Origin: an uncultured Clostridia bacterium
Lineage (GTDB): Bacteria > Bacillota > Clostridia > Christensenellales > CAG-917
Length of the DNA stretch: 64,000 nucleotides
Assembly (NCBI GenBank): GCA_934277615.1
Contig: CAKQUV010000002.1
Location: forward strand, 98,855-162,854
Direction: 5' to 3'
In this document: piece after piece, positions 5,528-64,000 of the stretch
Position numbering within the stretch: the stretch's first letter is position 1
Layout of the letters: each line of letters starts with the position of its first letter
The notes under the pieces: model-generated
What the model saw: the letters and a program-made list of their open reading frames with translations, nothing else
Told to the model about the DNA's origin: nothing
Databases searched by the model: none
Program-made: the position numbers and the translations under genes

Positions 5528-5547
5528 AAGGATAGGCAAAGCCGACC

Positions 5548-6240
5548 TTAATTAATAATTAATAATTACGGAAGGCATAGCCTTATCTGAACGCACACTC
5601 ATTCGTAGTCTACTTATAAATGGTATATGCTTATTCGAAGTTGGAGGCGCAAGGCGCCGACCGCACCGAGCGTCGAGCTTGCGTCACACACAAGGCTTTT
5701 AGCCACAATTGTCACTCGTGCCAATTGCTTGCTTTTTGCCTTGGTGCTCCTTCTTTCCTTCACACAAAAGACTGCGCTTTCATCTTATATATTGCGCTTT
5801 CGTTCGCTTGTCTTTTGTGTGTGGAAGCCTTGTGGGTGCAGTACAAGCGACTGCGCAGTGTTGTTGCGTAGCCGGCGCACAAAGCGAAGTGGCATAATGA
5901 GAGGAATGTCCCTATCTATGCGCGTGCCGTAAGGAGCGAAGCGACGGAATAGCGATTGCTACGAAGTCAATCGCGTCGTGTGTCCCCCTGCGGAGCAGTT
6001 CCGTGGGTTCCCTCAAACGAAGTGCGGAGGGGGAACGGAATATGGGCGCGACGCGTTAAGCAACACATCCGGTGAATGTGTTGTAGCCAAAGCGAACGAG
6101 GCGGATTGCGGTGCGCAAACGCCGAAGTCCAAACACCGTGAGGAAGGGGGGGGAAAAAAAGTTGCATTTAATAGTATTTTTAGAAATACCGGCGTGTCCG
6201 GAAAGATGGGGTTATTGCATTTAAGGAGTTACGACGCACT
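5548..6240 (+). repeat. mosaic hairpin-rich intergenic element, copy 1 of 3 (~0.7 kb)
   Basis: Starts with a TTAATTAATAATTAATAATT leader 20 nt after the upstream stop. Long blocks are near-identical to 56936-57535 (same strand) and 33361-33887 (reverse complement). Examples: GCTTATTCGAAGTTGGAGGCGCAAGGCGCC, GCGCGACGCGTTAAGCAACACAT...GAATGTGTTGTAGCCAAAGCGAACGAGGCGGATTGCGGTGCGCAAACGCCGAAGT, CCGGCGTGTCCGGAAAG. Confidence 0.75.
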
Positions 6241-10060: not shown

Positions 10061-10064
10061 ATTA

Positions 10065-10170
10065 GTGATATCGTGCTTCGCACGGTGATATTTGCGCAAA
10101 GCGCAAGTGATATTTTTTGCTTACGCAAAAAGTGATATTGCACCTGCGGTGCAGTTATGGAATATTCCAT
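10065..10170 (-). repeat. hairpin/ATATCAC array A (4 units plus GGAATATTCC palindrome)
   Basis: On the minus strand: ATGGAATATTCCAT, then TGCACCgcaGGTGCA-ATATCAC, TTTTTGCgtaaGCAAAAA-ATATCAC, TTGCGCtttGCGCAA-ATATCAC, CGTGCgaaGCACG-ATATCAC, then the terminator. Same architecture as 20599-20707 and 23741-23863. Confidence 0.8.
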
Positions 10171-10411
10171 TAGTGCACGCAGTGCGCCTAACGTTGCTCG
10201 TAGGCAGGCGGAGCCGTAGTTTATAACTCCACGAAGAATAATTGTGGGCATCAACTGTCTATCCGAGCAACCGCCGAGCCGCCTCAAGGTTGCGAGACCT
10301 TACGCAAAAAGCAAGGCTCCGCTTGCTTTTTTGTAGGACGTTTGCGCCTAAATATGTGTCAAGTTATCTCGTAGAGATAAGTGACACGTGTTTAGCATTC
10401 GGCGCAAGCTG

Positions 10412-12326: not shown

Positions 12327-12417
12327 CGGAAGTAGTAGGGTATTGCGCGTTAAGTGCCGTGCGAACGTGGAGTGTCGGCGGACGAAGGGTTTTCCCGCGG
12401 TGCAATGCTCACTCCAG
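12327..12417 (+). promoter_or_regulatory. THF (tetrahydrofolate) riboswitch, THF-I / folT-motif class
   Basis: GGAAGUAGUAGGGUAUUGCGCGUUAAGUGCCGUGCGAACGUGGAGUGUCGGCGGACGAAGGGUUUUCCCGCGGUGCAAUGCUCACUCC. It shares the recalled hallmark blocks GUAG, GCGUUAAGUG, GUGUCG, ACGAAG, GCGGUG.AAU and a closing CUCC/GGA P1. It sits directly upstream of folC. Confidence 0.75.
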
Positions 12418-12470
12418 ACTTCACATATTACCGAAAGGTTTTTTGCGAGTACTTCCCGAGGAGGTGCTTT

Positions 12471-13790: not shown

Positions 13791-13820
13791 CAAGTAAATA
13801 TAAAAACACAAATAACAAAA

Positions 13821-14060
13821 AATTAATAACAAAAAATTAATAATTAATAATTGCGGGTGGGCGTTGCCCACACCCGAGCAAAAGTCGTCGCTGTGGCAAA
13901 GATAACTCACAAGTTCATTGTCTACTGCCACGCTAGCCTTATTGCTCTGCTACCGCGCAACCGATATACGATCAGTATAGCATGGACAAGAATTCGTACC
14001 ACAGTTCCGCTATATCGCTTGCTTGGTGTATTTGTGGAGTATTCCGCAGCTAGAAAATTT
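13821..14060 (+). repeat. mosaic hairpin modules filling the folC-folE spacer
   Basis: AATTAATAAC..AATTAATAATTAATAATT leader, then GGGTGGGCGTTGCCCACACCC (same hairpin as 56970-56990) and a degenerate GTGGAGTATTCCGC palindrome. Confidence 0.5.
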
Positions 14061-15455: not shown

Positions 15456-16262
15456 ATGGACGTTATTGTTTTGAAAGATTTTGAAGTAACGGCATGCCAC
15501 GGAGTCAATCCCGAAGAGAAGGTAAATCCGCAAAGATTTTTGTTTACGGCAGAGATTTTTACGGATTTTTCAAAGTGCGCCAAAAACGACGATTTGACGC
15601 AAACCATAAGTTATAGCGCCGTAAAAAAGACTTTAAAGTCCTTTTGTGAAAACAACTGCTTTGATTTGATAGAAACTCTTGCCAAGAGAGGCGCGTCGCT
15701 TTTGCTAAAAACCTACCCCCTTGCAAGCGGTGTGAAACTCACCGTCAAAAAGCCCGACGCACCTATGAGCGGTGTTTTCGATTACGTCGCGGTAAGCACG
15801 GAACTTTGGTGGCATGAGGTTTATCTCGCGCTCGGATCAAATATGGGCGATCGCAACGCATACCTCGATTTTGCGATAGACAGATTGAAGGCGGACGACA
15901 ATTTCAAGGACATCGAAGAAAGCGGGAGAATGCAGTCCGCACCATATGGCAACGTCGCAACGGATACCTTTGTCAACAGCGCGGTGAAGTGCAAGACTTT
16001 GTATACTCCTCACGAGTTGCTCGATACGATTATGCAAATAGAAAAGGGCGGAGACCGCGTTCGTAAAGAGAGATGGGGCAACCGCACTCTCGATATCGAT
16101 ATCTTGTTTTACGACGATTTGATAATAGAGGACGACGATTTGTGCGTACCGCACATCGATATGCAAAATCGCGAATTTGTATTGAAACCTCTTTGTGAAT
16201 TGTGCCCCAACAAAGTGCATCCGCTTTTTAATAAACGTATCATTGAACTAAAAACGCACTAA
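15456..16262 (+). CDS. folBK: fused dihydroneopterin aldolase / 6-hydroxymethyl-dihydropterin pyrophosphokinase
   Basis: N-terminal FolB-like domain (CHGVNPEEK...ISYS). C-terminal HPPK domain (LALGSNMGDR, RWGNRTLDIDILFY). The last codons (KTH-stop) lie inside the palindromic element 16250-16375. Confidence 0.9.
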   Translation: MDVIVLKDFEVTACHGVNPEEKVNPQRFLFTAEIFTDFSKCAKNDDLTQTISYSAVKKTLKSFCENNCFDLIETLAKRGASLLLKTYPLASGVKLTVKKPDAPMSGVFDYVAVSTELWWHEVYLALGSNMGDRNAYLDFAIDRLKADDNFKDIEESGRMQSAPYGNVATDTFVNSAVKCKTLYTPHELLDTIMQIEKGGDRVRKERWGNRTLDIDILFYDDLIIEDDDLCVPHIDMQNREFVLKPLCELCPNKVHPLFNKRIIELKTH

Positions 16263-16375
16263 ATCGCGCCTAACTTCGGCAGAGCCGTCCGATTGCCAAC
16301 TCATTTACGTTTAGTAAATTAGGGTTGCCACTCGGACAGCTCTTTCTTGTTATGCATCGATTTATCGCGTTTTTT
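16250..16375 (+). repeat. ~125-bp imperfect palindrome with attC-like geometry, copy 1
   Basis: AAAACGCACTAAATCGC-GCCTAAC(16268-16274)-ttcggc-AGAGCCGTCCG...CATTTACGTTTAGTAAATTAGGG...CGGACAGCTCT-ttctt-GTTATGC(16349-16355)-ATCGATTTATCGCGTTTT. Overlaps the folBK stop codon. Confidence 0.8.
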
Positions 16376-16510
16376 ATTAACTTTTATAAACTTATCTTTT
16401 ACTATAATATGGCATTTTTGCTTCAAATCAATTGCCTATTGCACATATTATCCACATATGTTATCATATCAGTGTAATAAAACACATTGTGTTCAAAAAG
16501 AGGAGAAAAT

Positions 16511-17014
16511 ATGAGGATAATTATTAAGCAAAAGTATTTCACAATCGGTAACAAATTCAAAATCACGGACGAAAACGACGCCGTCGTGTTCTTTGCCGTG
16601 CGCCAGTTTGACAGAATTATGTCAAACGTCGTGTTGTTTGACAAAAACGATACGCCCCTTTTGCGTGTGCAAGCGGAACTCAAAAAGTTTTTTACAACCT
16701 ATTTCGAGGTCAATGACGCTTACGGCGCAAAACTCTTTGCCATTGACGAAAAATTGCCGTTTTTCTGCTTTAAGCGCGCCAAGACCGTTGGCAATATCGA
16801 CGTCAAAATCAAGTGCGGACCAATACATATGAAAGCGTATATTTCGGACGGTAAAGGTTCTTACGACAAAACGCCCGTCGTGCGTGCCCGCAAAAAGATT
16901 TTAAGCATTGCCGACACCTACGTCGTGGATATCGACGATGCGCGAATTCGTTCGGAGTACGGTGCTGTCATTGGCATCTGGTATGATTTAATCAAACATA
17001 ACAAAACGCACTAA
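16511..17014 (+). CDS. LURP-one-related / YxjI-like (tubby C-terminal-like fold) protein
   Basis: MRIIIKQKYFTIGNKFKITDENDAVVFFAV... pattern of the PF04525-type family. AGGAGA SD before ATG 16511. Ends in KTH-stop encoded by repeat copy 2. Confidence 0.6.
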   Translation: MRIIIKQKYFTIGNKFKITDENDAVVFFAVRQFDRIMSNVVLFDKNDTPLLRVQAELKKFFTTYFEVNDAYGAKLFAIDEKLPFFCFKRAKTVGNIDVKIKCGPIHMKAYISDGKGSYDKTPVVRARKKILSIADTYVVDIDDARIRSEYGAVIGIWYDLIKHNKTH

Positions 17015-17125
17015 ATTGCGCCTAACTGCGTCAAGTCAGTCCGCCCGTCAACTCATTTACGATTAGTAAATTAGGGTTGCCGTTCGGACAGCCTTTCCTT
17101 GTTATGCATCGATTTATTGTGTTTT
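17003..17125 (+). repeat. ~125-bp imperfect palindrome with attC-like geometry, copy 2
   Basis: AAAACGCACTAAATTGC-GCCTAAC(17020-17026)...CATTTACGATTAGTAAATTAGGGTTGCCGTTCGGACAGCC...GTTATGC(17101-17107)-ATCGATTTATTGTGTTTT. Same strand and same 88-nt AAC-to-GTT box span as copy 1. Confidence 0.8.
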
Positions 17126-17186
17126 GCGTAAACTAAATTCAAATTCTACACAAAACAAAAAAACGATTACAATAAATTCAAATAAA

Positions 17187-17216
17187 ATAAAAGCCCGACG
17201 TCGTCGGGCTTTTTTA
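17187..17216. terminator. bidirectional intrinsic terminator
   Basis: AAAA-AGCCCGACG/CGTCGGGCT-TTTTT. Confidence 0.8.
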
Positions 17217-19393: not shown

Positions 19394-20572
19394 ATGGATA
19401 TCGAGACTTTGAGCGACAAACTGCAATACGTCGCGCTCTATCTTGCCGTGGCAATCGTGGCGGCGTTTATTGTGGTCGGGCTTCTCGTTTGGTTCAAGAA
19501 ACGCGACAAATTCGCCGATTTCAAAAAATACGCCGTCGGCATCGTAACGGGCTTTGCCGTAACAATGGTGGTCGTGTTTGCTTACGTCAAGTTTCAATGC
19601 AATCTGGGCGATATGCAAGCCAAACTCTTTTACCCCATTCTCGCAACGCTCATAACTGTGGTCGCAGGCGCAATCGCAATGCTCGTAAGCTCGCTTTTCA
19701 GCAACAAAGCGACAAAGATTTCCTTTATCGTAACGGCATTAGCGGTGCTTGGATGTTTTATCGCCACAATGGTGCTTATGGCGCAATACTACGGCGATAT
19801 TGCGGAGGATTATCCGTCCGCAAACCTCGTTGGCATGATTGTATCCGCAGTCGTGTTTATGGTGATAATGGTCGTTATGTGGTTTGTAGGGGACAAGCGC
19901 AAGATGAGCGACACTCGCTCTATCGTTTATGGCGCAATCTCAATCGCACTTTCCTTCGCGCTCTCGTACGCACGCATTTTCAAACTTCCTCAAGGCGGCT
20001 CCGTAACGTTCGCAAGCCTCCTTCCGCTCATGGTGTATTGCTGCATGTTCGGCACGAGAAGAGGTCTTATCGTATGCACGATATACGGCGTTTTACAAGC
20101 GCTACAAGACCCGTACATAATTCACCCGATGCAATTCTTGCTCGATTATCCTCTTGCATTCGGTCTTATCGGCGTAAGCGGCATATTTATGGAGAAGGGC
20201 GTATTCAAGGATAAAAAAGTCGTTGCATTCCTGCTCGGCGGCGTTATCGCAGTCGTATTGAGATACGCATGCCACGTATGCTCCGGCGTCTTTGCGTTTG
20301 CCGACTATGCCGACCTCGATAAGTACAACACCGCAATCGCATACAGCATGGCGTACAACTCCTTCGCTTTTGTGGATATGCTCATCGCTCTCGTCGCAGG
20401 CAGCGTCTTGTTTGCTTCCAAATCCTTTACGGCGCTTATGCAAAAGTCAAGCGACTTGAACAAGGCGGCGGAAGTCGCACCCTTGCAAGAGGTTGAGGAT
20501 GACGAACCCGTTGACGAAATCGACCGTCAAATCATCGAAAGCCAAAAAGCAGACGATGAAAGTCAAAATTAA
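19394..20572 (+). CDS. thiT: ECF-type thiamine transporter S-component ThiT fused to an extra N-terminal multi-TM region
   Basis: The C-terminal ~200 aa match the ThiT/YuaJ pattern (ISIALSFALSYARIFKLPQGGSVTFASLLPLM...). About 190 extra N-terminal residues carry ~5 TM helices. Acidic C-tail. GGAGGA SD. TPP riboswitch lies upstream. Confidence 0.8.
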   Translation: MDIETLSDKLQYVALYLAVAIVAAFIVVGLLVWFKKRDKFADFKKYAVGIVTGFAVTMVVVFAYVKFQCNLGDMQAKLFYPILATLITVVAGAIAMLVSSLFSNKATKISFIVTALAVLGCFIATMVLMAQYYGDIAEDYPSANLVGMIVSAVVFMVIMVVMWFVGDKRKMSDTRSIVYGAISIALSFALSYARIFKLPQGGSVTFASLLPLMVYCCMFGTRRGLIVCTIYGVLQALQDPYIIHPMQFLLDYPLAFGLIGVSGIFMEKGVFKDKKVVAFLLGGVIAVVLRYACHVCSGVFAFADYADLDKYNTAIAYSMAYNSFAFVDMLIALVAGSVLFASKSFTALMQKSSDLNKAAEVAPLQEVEDDEPVDEIDRQIIESQKADDESQN

Positions 20573-20598
20573 TAGTTAATAATTATTAATTAATAATT

Positions 20599-20707
20599 GT
20601 GGAATATTCCACAACTTGCGCCTATGGCGCAAATATCACTTTTTGCGTAAGCAAAAAATATCACTTGTGCGTAGCACAAATATCACTGCACGAAGTGCAA
20701 TATCACT
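20599..20707 (+). repeat. hairpin/ATATCAC array B (4 units plus GGAATATTCC palindrome)
   Basis: GTGGAATATTCCAC, then TTGCGCCtatGGCGCAA-ATATCAC(20633), TTTTGCgtaaGCAAAA-ATATCAC(20658), TGTGCgtaGCACA-ATATCAC(20680), GCACgaaGTGC-ATATCAC(20700). Lies between the thiT stop (plus an AT-rich leader) and the terminator. Confidence 0.85.
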
Positions 20708-22508: not shown

Positions 22509-23444
22509 ATGGAAGTCAGGATACCTTCGGGTTTCAAAATAGGTCATTACGACGACGAATACACGGGCGTAACCGTCGTTCTTTCAGAGAGCGGCGCAAC
22601 GGGCGGCGTTGACTGTCGCGGCGGCGCCCCCGGCACGAGAGAAACCGACCTTTTGCACAATGAAAAAATGATGCAAAAAGTCAACGCAATCGTGCTTTCG
22701 GGAGGCTCGGCATACGGGCTTGCCTCCACGTGCGGAGTTATGGAATACTTGCGTCAAAAGGGCGTTGGATACAAGAGCCTCGGCAAAATCGTGCCTATCG
22801 TTTGCGGTGCGGTTTTATACGACCTCAATCAAAAGGAATATCACTATCCAACCGCAGAATACGGACTTAAAGCCTGCGAAAATGCTTCAAAAACCACCGT
22901 TTTTGGCAATATCGGCGCAGGTAAGGGCGCAACCGTCGGCAAAATCCGCGGCATCAAAAACGCATGCAAGAGCGGTATCGGCGCGGCAACGGAAAAGGTG
23001 CTGGGCGTTACCGTAACGGCAATCGTCGCAGTCAACGCAATGGGCGATATCGTCGATGATGAGGGAAAAATCATCGCAGGCGCAAAAGGCAAAAACGGAG
23101 AGTTTATCGACACCGAAAAATGCCTTGCCGAGGGCGACGTGCTCAAACTTGCGTTTGGCACCAACACCACGATAGGATGTATTCTCACCGACGCAAAACT
23201 AGACAAGGTGGACGTCAATAGGCTTGCAAGCATTTCCCACAACGGACTTGCAAGAGCAATCCGTCCCGTGCATACCATGTACGACGGCGATACAATGTTC
23301 TGCCTTGCAAGCGGCAAACGTCCTGTGGCAAATCTTGCAGTGCTTCAATCGGCAGTCGTCCGCGCCACACAGCGCGCCATTCAAAACGCCGTTGCCGCAA
23401 CAACAAATTATGATGTGATATACGATGATGACGAAGAGGAGTAA
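22509..23444 (+). CDS. P1 (S58, DmpA/BapA-like) family aminopeptidase
   Basis: GVTVVL...GGVDCRGGAPGTRETDLL, SGGSAYGL and the self-processing GTNTTIG motif. Confidence 0.8.
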   Translation: MEVRIPSGFKIGHYDDEYTGVTVVLSESGATGGVDCRGGAPGTRETDLLHNEKMMQKVNAIVLSGGSAYGLASTCGVMEYLRQKGVGYKSLGKIVPIVCGAVLYDLNQKEYHYPTAEYGLKACENASKTTVFGNIGAGKGATVGKIRGIKNACKSGIGAATEKVLGVTVTAIVAVNAMGDIVDDEGKIIAGAKGKNGEFIDTEKCLAEGDVLKLAFGTNTTIGCILTDAKLDKVDVNRLASISHNGLARAIRPVHTMYDGDTMFCLASGKRPVANLAVLQSAVVRATQRAIQNAVAATTNYDVIYDDDEEE

Positions 23445-23740
23445 AAATTAATAATTGATGGTGGAACACCCACATCCGAACGAAAATAAATATGGAATAT
23501 TCCATATGTCATTCCGCCAATGTCGAGTGAGAAAACTTGCTTGCAAGGGTTTCCGAACGACGATATTTTTGAAGTGATTGAAATTGCATTTATGCAAAAA
23601 AAGCCATAGGCTTGCGCTATTAGCGCACAATCACTGTGGGAACGAAGTGACCGTGGGAATCTAGCGTAGCGAAATGCGCCTGCGGCTAGATTGCCACGCT
23701 TGCGCTCGCAATGACGAAAGGGTGGGATACCCACACCCGA
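23445..23740 (+). repeat. mosaic hairpin modules (AT-rich leader, GTGG..CCAC hairpins, GGAATATTCC palindrome)
   Basis: AAATTAATAATT directly after the stop, then GGTGGAACACCCAC, ATATGGAATATTCCATAT (23490-23507), AAGCCataGGCTT, GCGCtattaGCGC and GGGTGGGATACCCACACCC. The same module types occur at 5548, 13821, 20569 and 56936. Confidence 0.55.
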
Positions 23741-23863
23741 ATGGAATAATCCACAACTGCGGCAACGCCGCAATATCACTTTTTGCGAAAGCAAAAAATA
23801 TCACTTGCGCAAAGCGCAAATATCACTGCGCCCACGGCGCAATATCACTCGCACGAAGTGCGA
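23741..23863 (+). repeat. hairpin/ATATCAC array C (5 hairpins, 4 linkers)
   Basis: ATGGAATAATCCAC, then TGCGGCaacGCCGCA-ATATCAC(23773), TTTTGCgaaaGCAAAA-ATATCAC(23798), TTGCGCaaaGCGCAA-ATATCAC(23820), TGCGCCcacGGCGCA-ATATCAC(23842), TCGCACgaaGTGCGA. Ends 9 nt before the ATG of the radical SAM gene. Confidence 0.85.
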
Positions 23864-31247: not shown

Positions 31248-33210
31248 AACAAAGAAAAACACGGCAAATCCCGCAATGCACGGCAAGAATTTCCGCGCCC
31301 AAAGCCCGTCCAAGACTTTCAAGCGAATACTAACTTATCTCAAGCCCTACACGGGTATGTTGATCGGCGCGTTGATTTGCATGATCGCAAACGTCGTCTG
31401 CAACATCGCAGGCACGTTTATGCTCGGCTCCGTCATTGTCAACAACTACATTCTTCCGCTTGCGTATAAGTTTAATAACTTGGTGACAACCGACCCCGAC
31501 ATCATTGCAAGGTCTGCGGAAATCACCATTCAGAACTTCGGCGGCATAGTCGGCGTTATGGCGGCAATGTACGTCGCCGGCGCAAGCTTGCACTATGTAT
31601 ATAACTACATCATTGTAAAAGTTACTACTCAAGTGCTTCAAAACGTCCGCGACGAGATGTTTGAAAAGATGGAAAAATTGCCCATTCGCTACTTCGACAC
31701 TCACACGCACGGCGACATAATGAGCCTTTACACCAACGACACGGACACTTTGCGCGAGTTGCTCTCCAACGGCATCCCCAACCTCATATCCAACGTTATG
31801 ACGATAGTGGGTATGTTCATCGCAATGATGGCAACGTCGTGGGTGCTTGCGCTTTGCTCAGTCGCAATGATAGTCGTTATGCTGTTTATAATGAAGTACA
31901 TCGGCGGCAAGAGCGGCAAGTATTTTGTCGGACAACAACGCCAGACGGGCGCAATCAACGGCTTTATAGAAGAACATATCGACGGTATGAAGGTTGTCAA
32001 AGTGTTCTGCCACGAGGACGCGGAAAAAGAAGATTTCGACGGTTTCAACGAACGTCTTTTCCACGATTCCGACAAAGCGCACAAATACGCAAATATCTTG
32101 TTCCCGATTATGGGCAACTTGTCCTACGTATCTTATGCAATCACCGCAATCGTCGGCACGATTTTGGCAATAAGCGGTACGGGCGCGGTGGCGCTTTCCT
32201 GGGGCGGTTTGGTATCCTTCATGCAGTTCTCTCGTCAATTCAGCAATCCGCTTGCGCAAATCGCTCAACAAATGAACGGCGTTCTCATGGCGCTTGCAGG
32301 AGCGGAACGTATCTTCGAGCTTATCGACCAAGAACCCGAAAAAGACGAAGGCTACGTTACTTTGGTCAACGCAAAAGAGGACGAGAACGGCAACATTGTC
32401 GAAACTCCCGAATATACGGGTATGTGGGCTTGGAAACACTTCCACAAAGCGGAAGGCACAACCACCTACGTCAAGTGGCAAGGTAAAGTGCAGTTTGATG
32501 ACGTAACGTTTGGATACGTGCCTGAAAAGACCGTGCTCAAACACGTTACCATGTACGCATTGCCCGGACAAAAAGTCGCGCTTGTCGGCTCAACAGGCGC
32601 AGGCAAAACAACCATAACCAACCTTATCAACCGCTTCTACGACGTGGAGGACGGCAAGATAAGATACGACGATATCAACATCACCAAAATCAACAAGAAC
32701 GATTTGCGCCGCTCCATGGCAATGGTTTTGCAGGATACGCACCTTTTCACGGGTACCGTTGCGGACAATATCCGCTTTGGCAAACTTGACGCAACTGACG
32801 AGGAAGTTGAAAACGCCGCAAAACTCGCCAATGCCGACTATTTCATCCGCCACTTGCCCGAGGGCTATAACACAATGCTCACAGGCGACGGCGAGAATTT
32901 GTCGCAAGGTCAACGTCAGCTCCTCGCAATCGCGCGCGCGGCAATTGCCAATCCGCCCGTGCTTATTTTGGACGAGGCAACCAGCTCCATCGACACTCGC
33001 ACCGAGAAACTCATCGAGCAAGGCATGGACAAACTCATGCAAGGTCGCACCGTCTTTGTCATCGCCCATAGACTTTCCACCGTCCGCAACGCCGACGTTA
33101 TCTGCGTTCTCGAACACGGTGAAATCATCGAACGCGGCAATCACGAGCAGTTAATCGCTAAACGCGGTAAGTACTATCAACTCTACACCGGCGCTTTCGA
33201 ACTTGAATAA
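31240..33210 (+). CDS. ABC exporter, fused permease/ATPase (half-transporter B)
   Basis: GSTGAGKTT, SQGQRQL and ILDEATSSID motifs. 8-nt overlap with the upstream half-transporter gene suggests a heterodimer. The stop codon lies inside palindromic element copy 3. Confidence 0.9.
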   Translation: MPKTKKNTANPAMHGKNFRAQSPSKTFKRILTYLKPYTGMLIGALICMIANVVCNIAGTFMLGSVIVNNYILPLAYKFNNLVTTDPDIIARSAEITIQNFGGIVGVMAAMYVAGASLHYVYNYIIVKVTTQVLQNVRDEMFEKMEKLPIRYFDTHTHGDIMSLYTNDTDTLRELLSNGIPNLISNVMTIVGMFIAMMATSWVLALCSVAMIVVMLFIMKYIGGKSGKYFVGQQRQTGAINGFIEEHIDGMKVVKVFCHEDAEKEDFDGFNERLFHDSDKAHKYANILFPIMGNLSYVSYAITAIVGTILAISGTGAVALSWGGLVSFMQFSRQFSNPLAQIAQQMNGVLMALAGAERIFELIDQEPEKDEGYVTLVNAKEDENGNIVETPEYTGMWAWKHFHKAEGTTTYVKWQGKVQFDDVTFGYVPEKTVLKHVTMYALPGQKVALVGSTGAGKTTITNLINRFYDVEDGKIRYDDINITKINKNDLRRSMAMVLQDTHLFTGTVADNIRFGKLDATDEEVENAAKLANADYFIRHLPEGYNTMLTGDGENLSQGQRQLLAIARAAIANPPVLILDEATSSIDTRTEKLIEQGMDKLMQGRTVFVIAHRLSTVRNADVICVLEHGEIIERGNHEQLIAKRGKYYQLYTGAFELE

Positions 33211-33331
33211 GCCCCACAACGGCAAATAACTGCGTCAGAGCCGTCCGCCCGTCAACTCATTTACGCTTAGTAAATTAGGGTTGCCGTTCGGACGGCTTTT
33301 CCGCGCTCTTCATCTCAATATTGGCTTATTC
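33205..33331 (+). repeat. ~125-bp imperfect palindrome with attC-like geometry, copy 3 (right box decayed)
   Basis: GAATAAGCC...AAATAAC(33224-33230)-tgcgtc-AGAGCCGTCCGCCCGTCAACTCATTTACGCTTAGTAAATTAGGGTTGCCGTTCGGACGGCT...GCTCTTC(33305-33311)...GGCTTATTC. The outer arms GAATAAGCC/GGCTTATTC pair. Confidence 0.75.
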
Positions 33332-33360
33332 GCGCTCGAAAGATAAAGTATTGTCATAAC

Positions 33361-33887
33361 TCCTCAAAATACAATAACCCCCTCTCTCCGGACACGCCGG
33401 CATTTCTCGAAACAACTATTAAATGCAATTTTCCCTTTCCTCAAGGTGTTTGGACTTCGGCGTTTGCGCACCGCAATCCGCCTCGTTCGCTTTGGCTACG
33501 ACACATTCACCGAATGTGTCGCTTAACGCGTCGCGCCCATATTCCGTTCCCCCTCTGCGCTTTGCTTGAGGGAACCCACGACGACCGCGCAGCGGGGGAC
33601 AACTCGACGCGATTGACTTCGTAACAATCGCTATTCCGTCGCTACGCTCCTTACGGTACTCGCATAGAAAAGTATCGTTCTCTTGTTATGCCACTTCGCC
33701 TGCGTGGCGGCTGCGCAACAAAATGCCACGCATTCTCGTACTATTCATCAAGCTCGACGCTCGGTGCGGTCGGCGCCTTGCGCCTCCAACTTCGAATAAG
33801 CACATTCCGTTAATAAGTACTCTCCGAATGAGTGTGCGTTTGGATAAGGCTACACCTTCCACAATTATTAATTATTAATTATTAATT
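33361..33887 (-). repeat. mosaic hairpin-rich intergenic element, copy 2 of 3 (inverted, lacks the ~180-nt internal module)
   Basis: The reverse complement aligns with 5548-6240 and 56936-57535, including the AT-rich leader (33863-33887). The module GCGTCACACACAAGGC...GTACAAGCGACTGCGC is missing. Confidence 0.75.
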
Positions 33888-42952: not shown

Positions 42953-42981
42953 TTGATTTTTTCTTATAAACTATGTATAAT
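42953..42981 (+). promoter_or_regulatory. promoter of the acidic-protein genes
   Basis: TTGATT (42953-42958), 17-nt spacer, TATAAT (42976-42981). The ATG of the track ORF (42973) overlaps the -10 box. Confidence 0.5.
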
Positions 42982-43011
42982 CTATTAGATACTAAATCGC
43001 GGAGGAATATT

Positions 43012-44679
43012 GTGGAATTTTTTGAAAAGGCATTCGCTTGGCTTGCAGACGTATCGTCCAAATTGCCTAAAATAGATTTTCAAATATTTTTCATCGTCGT
43101 AGCGGCGGTGCTTTTCGGGTTGGGTATCGTATTTGCGTTTACGTATCTCGGCTCAAAGAGTTTCAAACTTATCAAGGCTAGCAAGAAAATTCAAAAATAC
43201 CTCGAAGGCGTCGACGCCGTCGATGACGACAACGTGAGCGATTTTACAGCGCATTGTTTCTCTGCAAAAGCGCCTCAAGCGTTGCGCGACAGTTGGGTGC
43301 AATACCTCGGCGTGCGCTTTGGATATCCCAGCGATATCGTCAGCGACAAGAACGTCTATGACAAGACGGTCAAAAAGAACAAGGACTATCGCGCGGGCAT
43401 CTACATTTGCGTATCGCTTATTTTGCTTGCGGTGTTTGCGTTTTGGGGATACGGCACTCTCGATAAGACAGCCATCGGCGCAGTGCATTTCGTGAGTCTT
43501 GTGATTATCGGATTGATGTATCTTTTCCTCATCCTCATCAATCGTGCTCAGAACAAGCGTTGCCTCGAAGCTTTTGACGCAATGCAAGAAGACCTTGACG
43601 CAAAGGTGAATTTGCAAGTCGAGAAAAACTATGCCACGGATTCCTCTCCGCTTTCCGAACTTGCGGGTATGGTGGAAGAGATTATCGCACGCAACACGTC
43701 CAAGGCAATCGACATCGACGAAGAGCCCGAAGAGGTGGCGGAGCCCACTCCCATCGAGGCTTTGATAGAACAAGAAGAGAAAGGCGAGAGCGTTGAGGAA
43801 GAAACTTCTGTCGACGAGGCAGACGAGCCGGTTTCCGAGGATAAGGAAGAAGAGTCTGTGGATGAAGAAGCGGAACCCACGGAAGAAACTTCCGTAGAAG
43901 AAGCCGAAGAGGTTGAAGAAACCCCCGTTGACGCTGTCGAAGAGAATACGGAAGAGGTTGCGGACGAGGAAACGGACGAAGTTGTCGAAACCGAGCCTGT
44001 CGAAGAAGCCGTAAAAGAAACCTCGGAGGAAACCGAAGAAGAAAAGGCTGACGACGAAAACGTTGAAGAAACCATAGAGGAAAGCACCGAAGAGGAAGGA
44101 CTCCAAGAAGCGCAAGAAGACGCTGCGGAAGAGAACGCCGAAGAACAACCTCTCAAAGAAGAACAAGAGGATACTCTTGACGAGGCAGAGGCTCAAGAGG
44201 AAGTTGAAGCCGAGGAAATCGAGGAAGAAGTCCGAGAGGATGAAAACTCGGTCGAAACGAAAGAAGAGCCTATTGAAGAAATCGCAGACGATGACGTTCA
44301 GGAGGACGTAACAGACGAGTCCGAAGAGGTTGAAGAACAATCCGAAGAAGAAGTAGCCGACGAAGGCGACGCAGAAGCCGAAGAAGTCGAGGACGATTCA
44401 CAAGAGGACAACTCAGAAGAGAAAGCCGAAGAGGAGCCCGAGGTCGTTTACGTCGTAGACGGCGAGGATGAGGACGAAGAAGTTGTCAAACCTGCAAAAC
44501 TTGTCAAACTTCCCAATCTCGTTGATTATATGCTGACAAAGAATATGCCGAAGGCTATGAAGATTCAAATCGCAGGAATGCTCATCGGCACGTACAAGAA
44601 GTTTGAAAACAGCAAGGAAGACCGCAAAATCGTTGTGCAATGTCTGACGAAAGTTATGCGCGACTTGCAAGCAAACTGA
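43012..44679 (+). CDS. membrane-anchored, extremely acidic protein with conserved C-terminal domain (paralog 1)
   Basis: GTG 43012 lies 5 nt after GGAGGA. Three N-terminal TM helices, ~260 aa of E/D-rich low complexity, then a ~75-aa C-terminal domain shared with 44759-45511. Confidence 0.65.
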   Translation: MEFFEKAFAWLADVSSKLPKIDFQIFFIVVAAVLFGLGIVFAFTYLGSKSFKLIKASKKIQKYLEGVDAVDDDNVSDFTAHCFSAKAPQALRDSWVQYLGVRFGYPSDIVSDKNVYDKTVKKNKDYRAGIYICVSLILLAVFAFWGYGTLDKTAIGAVHFVSLVIIGLMYLFLILINRAQNKRCLEAFDAMQEDLDAKVNLQVEKNYATDSSPLSELAGMVEEIIARNTSKAIDIDEEPEEVAEPTPIEALIEQEEKGESVEEETSVDEADEPVSEDKEEESVDEEAEPTEETSVEEAEEVEETPVDAVEENTEEVADEETDEVVETEPVEEAVKETSEETEEEKADDENVEETIEESTEEEGLQEAQEDAAEENAEEQPLKEEQEDTLDEAEAQEEVEAEEIEEEVREDENSVETKEEPIEEIADDDVQEDVTDESEEVEEQSEEEVADEGDAEAEEVEDDSQEDNSEEKAEEEPEVVYVVDGEDEDEEVVKPAKLVKLPNLVDYMLTKNMPKAMKIQIAGMLIGTYKKFENSKEDRKIVVQCLTKVMRDLQAN

Positions 44680-44758
44680 TTTAAATATGTAAAAAAAAGT
44701 TCAGTCGGGGGACTTTACGAGCCGACGTTTCAATAAAATATAAGGTGAGGATTGAAAG

Positions 44759-45511
44759 ATGTTTGGAAAGAAGAAAAAACAGGCAAAACTTGAACAAGAG
44801 CAACGCGAAAAAGAACAACGCGAGTTGGAACTTGCTCAACAACAAGCGGCGCAAAGAGCGGCAGAGGCTGCAAAAGAGGAAGAAAACAACGGCAAGATTT
44901 ATCTTGAAAGCGAAATCATCGACGACGATGAGGACGACAATTCTCTTCCCAAAGAGTATGAGTCTATCGCTTATATTTTGAAACAAGAAACGGGCGAAGA
45001 TTTGCTTGCGCAACCCGTTGACGACGACGTGGAAGAAACTCCGCTCCAAGAAGTCAAAGAAGAAGTTGCGCCTGTCGAAGAAAAGGCTGAAGAGAAGGTT
45101 GAAGAACCCGTAGCGCAAGAGCCTGTAAAAGAAGAGGCGCCGACCGAAGAGACAGCCGAAGAAGATGTTGAAGAGACCGAAGAAGAGGCAGAAGAAGAAG
45201 TCGAGGAAGAGGCTGACAAAGAGGAAGCTCAAGAAAAGACCGAAATCGCGCCGCAAGAACAAAAAGAAGAAGTGGTGTATATCGTGGACGGTCCGAGCGA
45301 GGACGACGACGAGATTGTTAAACCTGCAAAACTTGTCAAACTCCCCAATCTTGTGGACTACATGCTCTCTCAAAACATGTCCAAACAAATGAAGATAAAC
45401 ATTGCGACGTTGCTCCTTTCCACGTACAACAAGTACAAGGATATCCCTGCGGAAAAGAAGATTATCATCCAATGTATGGCAAAGGTTATGAGATCTCTCA
45501 TTCAAGGCTGA
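44759..45511 (+). CDS. soluble acidic protein with the same conserved C-terminal domain (paralog 2)
   Basis: GGTGAGGA SD. K/E/Q-rich N-terminus, acidic middle, and a C-terminus VVYIVDG..DDDEIVKPAKLVKLPNLVDYMLSQNM.K.MKI.IA..L..TY.K......KKIIIQC..KVMR.L. Confidence 0.65.
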   Translation: MFGKKKKQAKLEQEQREKEQRELELAQQQAAQRAAEAAKEEENNGKIYLESEIIDDDEDDNSLPKEYESIAYILKQETGEDLLAQPVDDDVEETPLQEVKEEVAPVEEKAEEKVEEPVAQEPVKEEAPTEETAEEDVEETEEEAEEEVEEEADKEEAQEKTEIAPQEQKEEVVYIVDGPSEDDDEIVKPAKLVKLPNLVDYMLSQNMSKQMKINIATLLLSTYNKYKDIPAEKKIIIQCMAKVMRSLIQG

Positions 45512-45566
45512 TAGAATATCGATTTGACAAGATAGTACATTGGTTTTCAACAAATTTTAGCAATGG

Positions 45567-55981: not shown

Positions 55982-56935
55982 ATGTTCGTAAAATTTTTGT
56001 CAAGTGCAATCAGATTGAGCGCGGTGTTCCTTTATGGTTCTACGGGAGAAATCATCGTGGAAAAGGGCGGACATCTCAACCTCGGTATTCCCGGCATTAT
56101 GAGCGTCAGTGCGGCGGTAAGCGTGCTTGCGGAATATTCTCTCATCAAGACCATGGGGACAAGTGCTCCCGCGCTTTTGGTGCTTATACCGATAATAGTT
56201 GCGTTTTTAGTCGGCGCGATTATGGGCTTCCTTTACAGTTTTCTCACCGTTACGCTTCATTGCAATCAAAACGTTGTTGGTCTTGCAATGACCACTCTCG
56301 GCGTAGGCCTTGCGGGCTACTATATGACGGGTGCGGGCGCAAAGATAATGATCGTCGCAAGAGCGAGCAAGTATTTTATCAAATTGTTCGACGTTCAGGG
56401 CGGCGGTGCGTTCTCGCAAATATTCCTCTCACACGGTGCGTTGGTGTATCTTGCAATTATAATCGCAGTCGTTGCTCAAATCGTACTTAGCAAGACGAGA
56501 ACGGGACTCAACCTCCGTGCCGTGGGTGAAAATCCCGCAACGGCGGACGCGGCGGGCATCGACGTCACCAAATACAAATACGTGTCATCTTGCGTAGGTT
56601 GCGGTATTTCGGGCTTGGGCGGTCTCTTCTGTGTTATGGACTATATGGGCGGAAACTGGGAATATGTCCTTGAAGGCTTTGGATGGCTCTCTATCGCACT
56701 CGTTATCTTCACGCTTTGGAAACCCGCATTGTCCATACTCGGATCAATAATTTTTGCGGGTTTGTACATCGCATCGTCGTACATAAAAGGCATTTCGTTT
56801 GCGCAAATCGAGCTTATCAAGCTTTTGCCGTACGTCGTCACAATCCTCGTGCTCGTCATCACGAGTATGATAAACAAGAGAGAAGCACAACCGCCGGCGG
56901 CACTCGGCATGTCTTACTTCCGAGAAGAGAGATAA
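55982..56935 (+). CDS. ABC transporter permease (BMP-type importer)
   Basis: Multi-TM protein that starts 1 nt after the upstream stop. Confidence 0.85.
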   Translation: MFVKFLSSAIRLSAVFLYGSTGEIIVEKGGHLNLGIPGIMSVSAAVSVLAEYSLIKTMGTSAPALLVLIPIIVAFLVGAIMGFLYSFLTVTLHCNQNVVGLAMTTLGVGLAGYYMTGAGAKIMIVARASKYFIKLFDVQGGGAFSQIFLSHGALVYLAIIIAVVAQIVLSKTRTGLNLRAVGENPATADAAGIDVTKYKYVSSCVGCGISGLGGLFCVMDYMGGNWEYVLEGFGWLSIALVIFTLWKPALSILGSIIFAGLYIASSYIKGISFAQIELIKLLPYVVTILVLVITSMINKREAQPPAALGMSYFREER

Positions 56936-57535
56936 AAATTAATAATTAATAATTAATAATTAATAATTGCAAGTGGGCGTTGCCCACACCTAAATGAAGC
57001 TTATTCGAGGCGTTCTTATTAACGGAATGTGCTTATTCGAAGTTCGAGTCGCAAGGCGCCGAGCGAATAAGCGCCGAGCTTGCGTCACACACAAGGCTTT
57101 TAGCCACAATTGTCACTTGTGCCAATTGCTTGCTTTTTGCCTTGGTGCTCCTTCTTTCCTTCACACAAAAGACTGCGCTTTCATCTTATATAACCCACTA
57201 TCGTTCGCTTGTCTTTTGTATGTGGAAGCCTTGTGGGTGCAGTACAAGCGACTGCGCCGTGTTGTTGCCTAGCTGGCGCACAAAGCGCAGTGGCATAACA
57301 AGGGGGCGATACCTATTTATGCGAGTGCCGTTGTCTCCCCCGCGAGCGACGAATAATATTGTAGAGAATTATCCCTAACCGAGTGGTCGGGCGCGACGCG
57401 TTAAGCAACACATTCGGTGAATGTGTTGTAGCCAAAGCGAACGAGGCGGATTGCGGTGCGCAAACGCCGAAGTGGACATGCCGGCGTGTCCGGAAAGAGG
57501 GGGCACATTGCATTAAAGAAGTTACGATGCACCCG
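56936..57535 (+). repeat. mosaic hairpin-rich intergenic element, copy 3 of 3 (~0.6 kb)
   Basis: (AATTAATAATT)n leader right after the stop, then GTGGGCGTTGCCCAC, followed by modules ~95% identical to 5628-5897 and 6046-6130. Confidence 0.75.
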
Positions 57536-63456: not shown

Positions 63457-63801
63457 ATGCACGAGTTAGGAGTGGTTTTTCACATTGCGGACATAGTGAG
63501 CGACGTCGCTCGCAAGAACAACGCGTCCAAAATTGCAAAGGTCGTCATGCAAATCGGCGAGGTTTCCACCGTCGTCAACGACCAACTCATCGATTGCTGG
63601 AATTGGAACGCCAACCGCACCGTCCTTCTCAAAGGTTGTAAAATAGAAGTGGAAACCATTCCTGCCGTCACCTATTGCGAGGATTGCAAAAAAGAGTATC
63701 CCACCGTTCAATACGGCAAAATTTGCCCCTACTGTGGCAGTGAGCATACTTATCTTTTGCGAGGGAACGAAGTCCAAATCAAAGAAATCCTCGTGGAATA
63801 A
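63457..63801 (+). CDS. hypA: HypA-type nickel insertion / zinc-finger metallochaperone
   Basis: MHELGV N-terminus (MHE nickel site) and a CEDC...CPYC zinc site. 114 aa. The stop lies inside palindromic element copy 4. Confidence 0.85.
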   Translation: MHELGVVFHIADIVSDVARKNNASKIAKVVMQIGEVSTVVNDQLIDCWNWNANRTVLLKGCKIEVETIPAVTYCEDCKKEYPTVQYGKICPYCGSEHTYLLRGNEVQIKEILVE

Positions 63802-63923
63802 GGGCTCAAATAGCGAATAACTTCGGCAGAGCCGTCCGCCCGTCAACTCATTTACGCTTAGTAAATTAGGGTTGCCGTTCGGACGGCTCTTTCTTGTTCT
63901 TCATCTATTTGAGCTCTTATTCT
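63797..63923 (+). repeat. ~125-bp imperfect palindrome with attC-like geometry, copy 4
   Basis: GAATAAGGGCTCAAATAGC-GAATAAC(63815-63821)-ttcggc-AGAGCCGTCCGCCCGTCAACTCATTTACGCTTAGTAAATTAGGGTTGCCGTTCGGACGGCTCT-ttctt-GTTCTTC(63896-63902)-ATCTATTTGAGCTCTTATTC. Confidence 0.8.
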
Positions 63924-64000
63924 ATTGCGCATTAGTCAAAGCTTCTTGTGCATCAACTCACGTACGTACTAGTACGTTAGGGTTGCTGCCCAAGGGGCTT

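Follow-up and report, generated by a model that had tools for sequence, protein, structure and literature searches.

The 64,000-nt stretch analysed here (referred to as the window), from contig CAKQUV010000002.1 of an uncultured Clostridia bacterium (assembly GCA_934277615.1), contains four copies of a long imperfect palindrome and part of a fifth, all placed at the ends of genes. Our preferred reading, to which we assign a probability of about 0.55, is that they belong to a lineage-restricted family of dispersed imperfect palindromes of about 128 bp, of the ERIC/IRU, Correia and RUP kind, located at gene ends in a clade of gut Clostridia. The family was found neither in Rfam nor in viral contigs nor in the searchable literature, and it follows an unusually strict rule of placement: its members lie only in the sense orientation relative to the upstream gene, and their last base pairs are formed by the stop codon of that gene.

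The 28-nt core CATTTACGNTTAGTAAATTAGGGTTGCC showed exact matches on the + strand of the window at 16302, 17054, 33258 and 63849, and none in 100 shuffles. A repeat search of the window placed the four copies in one 132-nt repeat family, with 77% mean column identity when aligned, and the open reading frames (ORFs) upstream terminate within the left arms at 16262, 17014, 33210 and 63801. These results confirm the first-pass annotation in its description of four + strand palindromes of about 125 bp overlapping stop codons, but not in their total, as a fifth partial copy adjoins copy 4. Pfam assigned the upstream genes to FolB plus HPPK, LURP-one-related (LOR, a weak match), ABC exporter and HypA, in agreement with the names given earlier (folBK, LURP-like gene, ABC exporter and hypA). 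Folded as single-stranded DNA, the + strands of copies 1-4 reached -20 to -36 kcal/mol (z of -3.0 to -9.9 versus shuffles), and the - strands of copies 1 and 4 reached z of about -9.3. In copy 3, the stop TAA at 33208-33210 pairs with TTA at 33326-33328, and weaker pairing reaches the coding sequence (about 33194 to 33342); in copy 4, the outermost pairs are formed by the stop TAA at 63799-63801 and TTA at 63917-63919. The outer arm which had been ascribed to both copies, GCTCAAATAG/CTATTTGAGC, is present in copy 4 only, whereas copy 3 shares just GAATAAGCC/GGCTTATTC. Copy 5 shows a variant apex, CAACTCACGTACGTACTAGTACGTTAGGGTTG (CACGTAC..GTACG), and a decayed left arm, and is complete at 1976-2077 of the sampled locus L119, a contig with an identical hypA gene.

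Loci for the copy census, about 0.8 Mb, were sampled as the contig stretches that match a 26-nt core in a one-genome-per-species collection. All sampled loci cover about 2% of each related genome and amount to 1.26 Mb together with the window. The exact 26-mer was found in at least 112 stretches, with 16 assemblies among the matches listed. The source assemblies are all human-gut metagenome-assembled genomes (MAGs): Christensenella sp. UBA7571, UBA6880, UBA767 and UBA7588, uncultured Clostridiales UMGS1170, UMGS1366, UMGS1331 and UMGS1042, or obviously mislabelled bins. An nhmmer profile run on the sampled loci and the window gave 182 matches, or 165 after dropping weak opposite-strand duplicates, and 125 of them are full length. 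The polarity of the family is clear despite its palindromic nature, with sense and antisense scores about 100 bits apart. A tally that precedes the removal of the opposite-strand duplicates gave 98 single copies, 32 double, four triple and two quadruple arrays, and copies are often found at orthologous sites across several species, behind housekeeping genes. At gathering thresholds, Rfam gave no match to the copies in the window, its sole window match being a tetrahydrofolate (THF) riboswitch; around copies 1 and 2, with E values up to 10, the best score was 19.6 bits versus a threshold of 80. No match to the family was found in 2.9 million viral contigs, and a literature sequence search found the core sequence in no paper. 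The family thus apparently represents previously undescribed hairpin repeats of about 128 bp of uncultured human-gut Clostridia.

Placement relative to genes is highly constrained. In 94 of the 125 full-length copies, an open frame of 100 codons or more terminates in the left arm on the sense strand; termination in the right arm, on the antisense strand, was seen in only one (p = 5e-27); crude gene calls gave 88 sense versus 0 antisense. The remaining copies are mostly second or third members of tandem arrays, and the first copy behind any gene is always sense-oriented and lies on the stop codon of the gene. No copy was found within a gene, and none 5-70 nt downstream of a stop codon. The left arm offers stops in all three frames, so a gene reading into it terminates within about 25 nt. 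In 70 of 87 copies the reading frame of the gene ends at the terminal stop, mostly TAA; one third would be expected (p = 2e-19). The other copies, including window copies 1 and 2, use left-arm stops of the remaining two frames. TAA represents 81% of the stops adjoining elements versus 54% elsewhere. Across the three bases of the stop codon, complementarity between the arms is 0.86, 0.92 and 0.95; it is 0.73 at the next base upstream and 0.31-0.47 farther out, and this fall just outside the stop codon indicates that the stop codon is the end of the palindrome.

The inverted ends are ATAA..TTAT in 22 copies, TTAA..TTAA in eight, CTAA..TTAG in eight and GTAA..TTAC in three, and TAA..TTA ends are extended by one more inverted base in 47 of 64 copies. 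Insertion at TA into a native stop codon was not supported, since the commonest ends are ATAA..TTAT and the base after the right end is seldom the third base of a stop. Inverted target duplication was rejected as a general rule, because pairing is at background two bases outside the stop, with about 20% of the arrays extending further. Pairing spread into unique coding sequence was found in about a fifth of the arrays (24% versus 4% in controls), and in arrays the gene end is mirrored best by the right arm of the last copy; thus, in L119, the hypA end (CTATTTGAGCCCTTATTCCAACGAG) is mirrored better by the right arm of copy 5 than by that of copy 4. Replication-strand bias was also rejected as the cause of orientation, as no leading-strand gene bias comes near a ratio of 94:1 and, where two genes converge, the copy lies against the gene of its own orientation. 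A DNA enzyme would be blind to reading frame, and the two orientations of the palindrome differ in their loops only; hence the placement implies either selection on what the sense strand offers, in the simplest case within the 3' end of the mRNA, or a targeting mechanism.

Each unit is one long interrupted hairpin. From the foot inwards, it consists of a variable outer stem, a box, the 6x5 internal loop, which is invariant, an inner stem that varies as well and, at the tip, the conserved apex. Its consensus is TAAAAnnGCGCTAAATAGCG-AATAAC-[TTTGTC]-AGAGCCnCnCG-nn-CG-T-CAACTC-ATTTAC-GATTA-GTAAAT-TA-GGGTTG-CC-GTT-CGnGnGGCTCT-[TTCTT]-GTTCTT-CAT-CTATTTAnCGCnnTTTTA. The apex, of 31-35 nt (CAACTCATTTACGNTTAGTAAATTAGGGTTG or covarying variants), is the most conserved segment and nearly invariant, and the outermost 10-12 bp are the least conserved part of the element. 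RNAalifold on 118 copies gave 47 consensus pairs in three helices, with compensatory double changes at 39 of them, which agrees with the earlier remark that the arms differ between copies yet stay complementary. With this consensus structure imposed, 93.7% of cells were paired versus 72.9% in column shuffles; double-sided changes were 1144 versus 358 in the shuffles, and the covariation score was 0.531 versus 0.164 (0.05-0.11 in slid controls). All 118 copies have the 6-nt/5-nt internal loop, which, like the 88-nt box-to-box span, had been correctly described in the window. Subfamilies differ in the apex hairpin by covarying changes (ATTTAC/GTAAAT, CGTAC/GTACG and others), with CAACTCA and TTAGGGTTG fixed, and a T.G pair (U.G on the sense RNA) is kept in 116 of the 118 copies. 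Interruptions of the inner stem are symmetric only. The absence of asymmetric extrahelical bases, reported earlier, holds for those of the type found in integron attC sites, but the hairpin does have other asymmetries, namely a 1x2 bulge surrounding a CAT conserved in almost all copies, another bulge at the apex and the T.G pair.

Such an organisation could also belong to a structured cis-acting RNA motif of the 3' untranslated region that is not mobile DNA, in which the hairpin would couple the termination of translation to the fate of the mRNA (stalling or rescue of ribosomes, decay or processing) and a protein would read both the apex and the 6x5 loop. The strict sense orientation and stop-codon phasing would be expected of such a motif, as would loops and apex conserved in sequence while the stems are conserved in pairing only, and the invariant sense-strand U.G pair. 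Furthermore, the apical loops start with G and end with A, some being GAAA and GNRA-like, and an optional extra hairpin in the internal loop recalls the variable arms of RNA families. However, G.U pairs are not in excess over A.C mismatches (106 versus 117 in the tally over the alignment, 53 versus 52 among orthologues), and one-sided changes are rare in relation to double changes. The antisense strand folds at least as stably as the sense strand (means of -59.4 versus -57.7 kcal/mol with RNA parameters), and more than 100 copies behind unrelated genes, together with tandem arrays and partial deletions, are typical of repeats. We consider this explanation rather unlikely.

Copies were taken as orthologous when their 150-nt left flanks were at least 80% identical, which gave 54 pairs. 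Their comparison showed a bimodal distribution, with whole sets of stems swapped in one class: either 0-8 base pairs are changed, mostly one-sided (56 single versus 13 compensated), or 10-25 are changed and mostly compensated. Between L024 and L014, whose flanks are 99% identical, 16 of 47 pairs differ and 13 of those are compensated. The bimodality and the compensated sets suggest that much of the covariation derives from replacement of whole hairpins or of apex-centred tracts, and from these alignments we infer that the replacing sequence probably came from other family members. Double changes far in excess of one-sided ones, the lack of G.U excess and variants swapped between 99% identical flanks all point to replacement at the DNA level. 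The family is thus a caution for covariation-based RNA discovery, as very strong statistics accompany a pattern that points to DNA-level hairpin replacement. Array sizes differ between orthologous sites, and L003 shows an apex-deleted derivative (AGAGCCGTCCG-ATTT-TCGGACGGCTCT) where L022 has a full copy, so the palindromes also decay. The copies are old: no near-identical ones were found within one genome, the best pairs differing throughout the stems, which argues against recent transposition bursts.

The first-pass annotation had compared the copies with attC sites. Cury et al. 2016 (PMC4889954) define such sites by their R and L boxes, by central spacers that stay unpaired, by extrahelical bases and by a terminal structure that varies. 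The same study reported complete integrons to be absent from Firmicutes, which agrees with the earlier remark that integrons are rarely, if ever, reported in Firmicutes-like genomes. According to this explanation, the copies are attC sites, or an attC cluster without integrase, whose bottom strands fold for IntI, and the LOR gene is a cassette. The size of about 125 bp and the order of box, unpaired spacer, stem, spacer and box resemble the layout in PMC4889954. Placement in one orientation behind ORFs and a conserved structure with variable stems are further points of likeness, and one small gene lies between two direct copies. In addition, the left box position fits RYYYAAC in 36 of 118 copies (GCCTAAC, GTCTAAC); however, the commonest box, GAATAAC, does not fit, and the right box position matches GTTRRRY, the attC box with the crossover point, in none of the 118 (its boxes are GTTCTTC, GTTATGC and GCTCTTC). 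The integron attC repeats of Vibrio are 123-126 bp long. Unlike attC sites, the stem here runs about 25 bp past the boxes to the stop codon, with 22 consensus pairs outside them, and the apex is conserved and not variable. Neither folds nor alignment showed attC-type extrahelical bases (single-base bulges, L-box position). The proposed search for intI, by tblastn with IntI1 (a query 100% identical to annotated intI1) on the 1.26 Mb sampled, about 2% of each related genome, gave no significant match, with a best E of 0.012. No cassette arrays were found; the copies are scattered, following housekeeping genes and in many cases occupying orthologous sites, and the LOR gene occurs without copies in relatives (L117, L128-131). 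The attC explanation is hardly credible, being contradicted on defining features, and its removal discards a false lead, that of integron sites in a Firmicutes-type genome.

The folBK-LOR locus, which holds copies 1 and 2, was compared with its relatives. In L113-116, whose FolBK is 94% identical, folBK is followed after 26 nt by a convergent Na/Ca exchanger gene, with neither LOR nor a copy. The LOR gene has no copy at all in L117, L128-131, L133, L138 and L145, has a downstream copy only in L125, and is followed in L126 by a left-box fragment fused to another repeat. Since relatives carry the LOR gene without copies or with one copy, or lack both, the copy 1-LOR-copy 2 unit is not a cassette, although it looks like one. 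Copy 1 is absent in L125 and L126, and copy 2 in L117 and L126; the proposed check by presence and absence in relatives therefore revealed polymorphism at the folBK and LOR gene ends, with footprints that are not clean. In relation to the empty alleles of L125 and L126, the copy-1 allele shows the element, 55 extra nt and 14 diverged codons. Alignment of 16215-16433 with L125 2290-2345 and with L126 shows that the last 14 codons of folB-folK, copy 1 and the next 55 nt are far more diverged than the flanks (about 94% protein identity overall).

The elements also modify the ends of the proteins. The folB-folK product ends in ..IELKTH* here versus ..ELYHSLKRS* in relatives without the element, and the LOR protein of relatives that lack the KTH* ending terminates in ..AQH* or ..NQH*. 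Copies 1 and 2 have a common left arm, AAAACGCACTAAAT(C/T)GCGCCTAAC; the left arm of copy 2 (AAAACGCACTAAATTGCGCCTAAC) almost equals that of copy 1, and both give the KTH* ending. In the LOR gene, this arm of copy 2 overwrites the last three native codons (..AQH* to ..KTH*) with length unchanged. At the level of sequence, this sharing fits conversion between neighbouring copies. The annotation of gut MAGs is affected, as the element rewrites protein C-termini, such as KTH* on two unrelated proteins of the window.

About 65 nt downstream of copy 2, at 17189-17213, there is a canonical terminator, and insertion of the elements into existing terminator hairpins was rejected, since this orthologous LOR terminator is intact and present in relatives without the element. 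The location at gene ends and a consensus whose ends read TAAAA..GCGC and GCGC..TTTTA, so that a T run comes after the GC-rich foot of the stem, raise another explanation, in which the copies are plain intrinsic (bidirectional) terminators that share sequence by chance. However, a 3' run of at least four T is present in only 41 of 118 copies (at least three T in 62 of 118), and terminators do not have a 35-nt apex and an invariant internal loop in common at more than 100 genes of 16 species. Tandem arrays are common, and a simple terminator scan flags 17189-17213 and not the copies. We find this explanation very unlikely. A plain-terminator role is likewise unlikely as the common function, because most copies lack the T run and the LOR gene keeps a separate canonical terminator. 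A promoter in the apex was considered and rejected, as the consensus is a poor fit to the -35 and -10 hexamers and nothing resembling a -10 element is present in the variant apex.

Among known systems, bacterial repeats resembling miniature inverted-repeat transposable elements (MITEs) share size, long stem-loop transcripts, terminal TA and stops in all frames (Delihas, PMC2229807). The family described here shows several traits of this class: 128 nt, multiple copies (165 in about 0.8 Mb), one long stem-loop and presence/absence polymorphism. As far as the tools reach, this bears out in kind the fallback suggestion of the first-pass annotation, a self-contained MITE/REPIN-like palindrome. ERIC/IRU elements are imperfect palindromes with TA termini, located in transcribed intergenic regions and co-transcribed, whose orientation affects the stability of the upstream mRNA (PMC2229807). 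They are nearly equal in size (127 bp) and also form one long stem-loop; unlike the present family, ERIC occurs in both orientations and is not stop-phased, and there is no sequence similarity. In the elements studied here, moreover, the stems are hypervariable and the apex is fixed, and the host is a Gram-positive-type gut Clostridia clade. Correia/NEMIS and RUP elements are non-autonomous, 100-155 bp long, with TA ends and long hairpin transcripts, and with all-frame stops in RUP and in the 155-bp Correia element (PMC2229807). They differ in having conserved terminal inverted repeats, TA target duplication and many near-identical copies, with a candidate transposase for RUP, whereas in the present family conservation is lowest at the termini, and neither a duplication nor young copies were seen. 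MIRU is described as inserting at start codons so that expression is preserved (PMC12548453), and the present elements share this codon-precise placement relative to neighbouring genes; however, MIRUs are short direct repeats with a small ORF at start codons inside operons, and not palindromes pairing across the stop. The family departs from the ERIC/Correia/RUP class in its variable termini without duplication, the lack of young copies and the sense-only, stop-phased placement.

A further explanation is a hairpin of single-stranded DNA, like repetitive extragenic palindromic (REP) sequences and REPINs or like IS200/IS605 ends, moved or maintained by a HUH transposase of the RAYT type that has a single gene in the genome. 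As in REP/BIME/REPIN systems, the palindromes are multi-copy, genome-wide and at gene 3' ends with no transposase nearby; asymmetric features are conserved on one strand, and the stems behave like palindromes of DNA, with no bias towards wobble pairs. When they lie near a stop codon, REPs are reported to affect translation. However, REPs measure 20-40 nt, and REPINs are doublets of two of them in inverted orientation, separated by a spacer that varies; the present unit is a single 128-nt hairpin whose centre is conserved and whose orientation relative to genes is strict. The consensus has neither the GTAG nor the CGTC tag at the hairpin foot (compare PMC3733652, in which roles of REPs in mRNA stabilisation and transcription termination are also proposed). 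A strand bias tied to replication would give about 80:20, versus 94:1 relative to genes. This possibility appears distinctly unlikely.

Several observations weigh against the reading as dispersed, MITE-like repeats. No direct target duplication was seen: flanking repeats of 2-4 nt are at chance level, and a TA duplication is indistinguishable from the inverted repeat. The ends are inverted but variable in sequence, unlike those of classic MITEs. Among 593 ORFs near copies, from about 2% of each genome, no transposase or recombinase recurs, and what does recur there are orthologous housekeeping genes. The compared loci revealed no recent transposition event that had left a clean footprint, and the divergence pattern suggests that the copy-1 segment may be an allele imported by recombination from another lineage rather than a clean insertion. 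In-frame, sense-only placement would need targeting or selection. With respect to function, G.U pairs do not exceed A.C mismatches and the antisense hairpin is slightly more stable, which leaves an RNA role only indirectly supported; a 3' run of at least four T occurs in just 41 of 118 copies, and the LOR terminator is kept in relatives without the element.

If these are dispersed repeats, the family may once have spread as a non-autonomous element whose inverted ends contained TA, and the surviving copies would be the tolerated or useful ones of an old family filtered by selection. Arm complementarity would be kept mainly by replacement of whole hairpins or apex-centred tracts from other copies, possibly with some templated correction between arms, and stepwise compensation of the RNA type would not be the main route. 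Co-transcription with the upstream gene would produce a very stable 3' hairpin starting at the stop codon (about -58 kcal/mol with RNA parameters), which might act as a barrier to 3' exonucleases, aid termination in the copies with a T run (41 of 118), and offer a binding site for a factor reading the sense-strand loops (apex and 6x5 loop). From this model we infer a possible functional role as an mRNA 3' hairpin. A bolder version, which we hold to be doubtful, proposes that the hairpin is a domesticated 3' element coupled to translation termination, selected for a start precisely on the stop codon and for the sense orientation alone; the terminating ribosome would have to melt the outer stem, and a factor would read both the 6x5 loop and the apex. 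If true, this 3' element would set mRNA decay, ribosome rescue or protein yield for about one gene in 15, clade-wide, and the arms of the hairpin would be renewed through copying and replacement anchored at the apex, with a result that mimics RNA covariation. Should the stop-codon phasing be functional, the family would provide a natural system for the effects of hairpins on termination and mRNA fate. The features of the window copies are collected in Table 1.

Table 1. Palindrome copies of the window and parts of copy 1, with limits of copies 1-4 set by reading the sequence.
Feature	Coordinates	Strand	Description
Copy 1	16249-16376	+	behind folB-folK; nhmmer 114 bits sense, 13 bits antisense
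Copy 1 outer arms			TAAAAACGCACTAAATCG / CGATTTATCGCGTTTTTTA
Copy 1 left box	16268-16274		GCCTAAC
Copy 1 right box	16349-16355		GTTATGC
Copy 1 internal loop, 5' side	16275-16280		TTCGGC
Copy 1 internal loop, 3' side	16344-16348		TTCTT
Copy 1 inner stem	16281-16291 with 16333-16343
Copy 1 apex	16297-16327
folB-folK stop codon	16260-16262	+	within copy 1 left arm; the element's second-frame TAA
Copy 2	17002-17126	+	behind the LOR gene
LOR gene stop codon	17012-17014	+	within copy 2 left arm
Copy 3	33205-33331	+	behind the ABC exporter gene; orthologous copy in L066
Copy 4	63796-63922	+	behind hypA
Copy 5	about 63923-64000	+	tandem after copy 4; profile match 63932-63999; cut by window end

A short antisense frame of 12 codons (ATG..TAA), constant in length, runs from the conserved CAT to the TTA of TTAGGG in the palindromes, for example at 16357-16319 (- strand), and encodes peptides such as M-K/H-N-K/A-K-E/A-....-Q-P. 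No Shine-Dalgarno sequence precedes it, and it is therefore probably a by-product of the conserved loops.

A second repeat of about 500-700 nt was found at 5541-6235 (+), 33353-33881 (-) and 56950-57527 (+) of the window, and also at about 2100-2500 of L119, past the window end. It shows GC-rich helices and no long conserved ORF, and its window copies start right after the stop codon of a co-oriented gene. Blastn detected 79 pieces in 50 sampled loci, and Rfam gave none above noise. It adjoins palindrome copy 3 and the copy 4/5 array, and looks like a structured non-coding RNA or another non-autonomous element. Furthermore, a 52-nt hairpin module (GACGCGATTGAC..GTAGCAATCGCTATTCCGTCACTTCGTTCCTTA) is inserted in the internal loop of some palindrome copies, in the left loop in L006, L010, L048, L053, L102, L110, L003 and L073 and in the right loop in L060. 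The module also occurs within the larger repeat, at 5948 (-) and 33609 (+) of the window, and represents either a mini-element nested there or a structural module that the two repeats share.

Gene ends also carry a third motif, made of TAATAATTAATAATT runs that have stops in several frames and of a short GC hairpin after them, such as GGGTGGGCGTTGCCCACACC. This motif is located at 13819-13874, 20565-20604, 23442-23482 and 56921-56990, and starts at or next to + strand stop codons. Blocks of AATATCACTTTTTGCGnAAGCAAAAAATATCACTTG.. form short hairpins spaced by AATATCAC at 10064-10171 (-), 20632-20707 and 23740-23831, and resemble operator arrays or a further small repeat. The folate operon that ends in folB-folK, after which copy 1 follows, is preceded by the THF riboswitch at 12329-12422 (62 bits, with a gathering score of 36). 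Finally, 42973-45553 contains a gene or genes encoding long acidic Glu-rich repeats (GAAGAA-type, with a 30-40-nt period).

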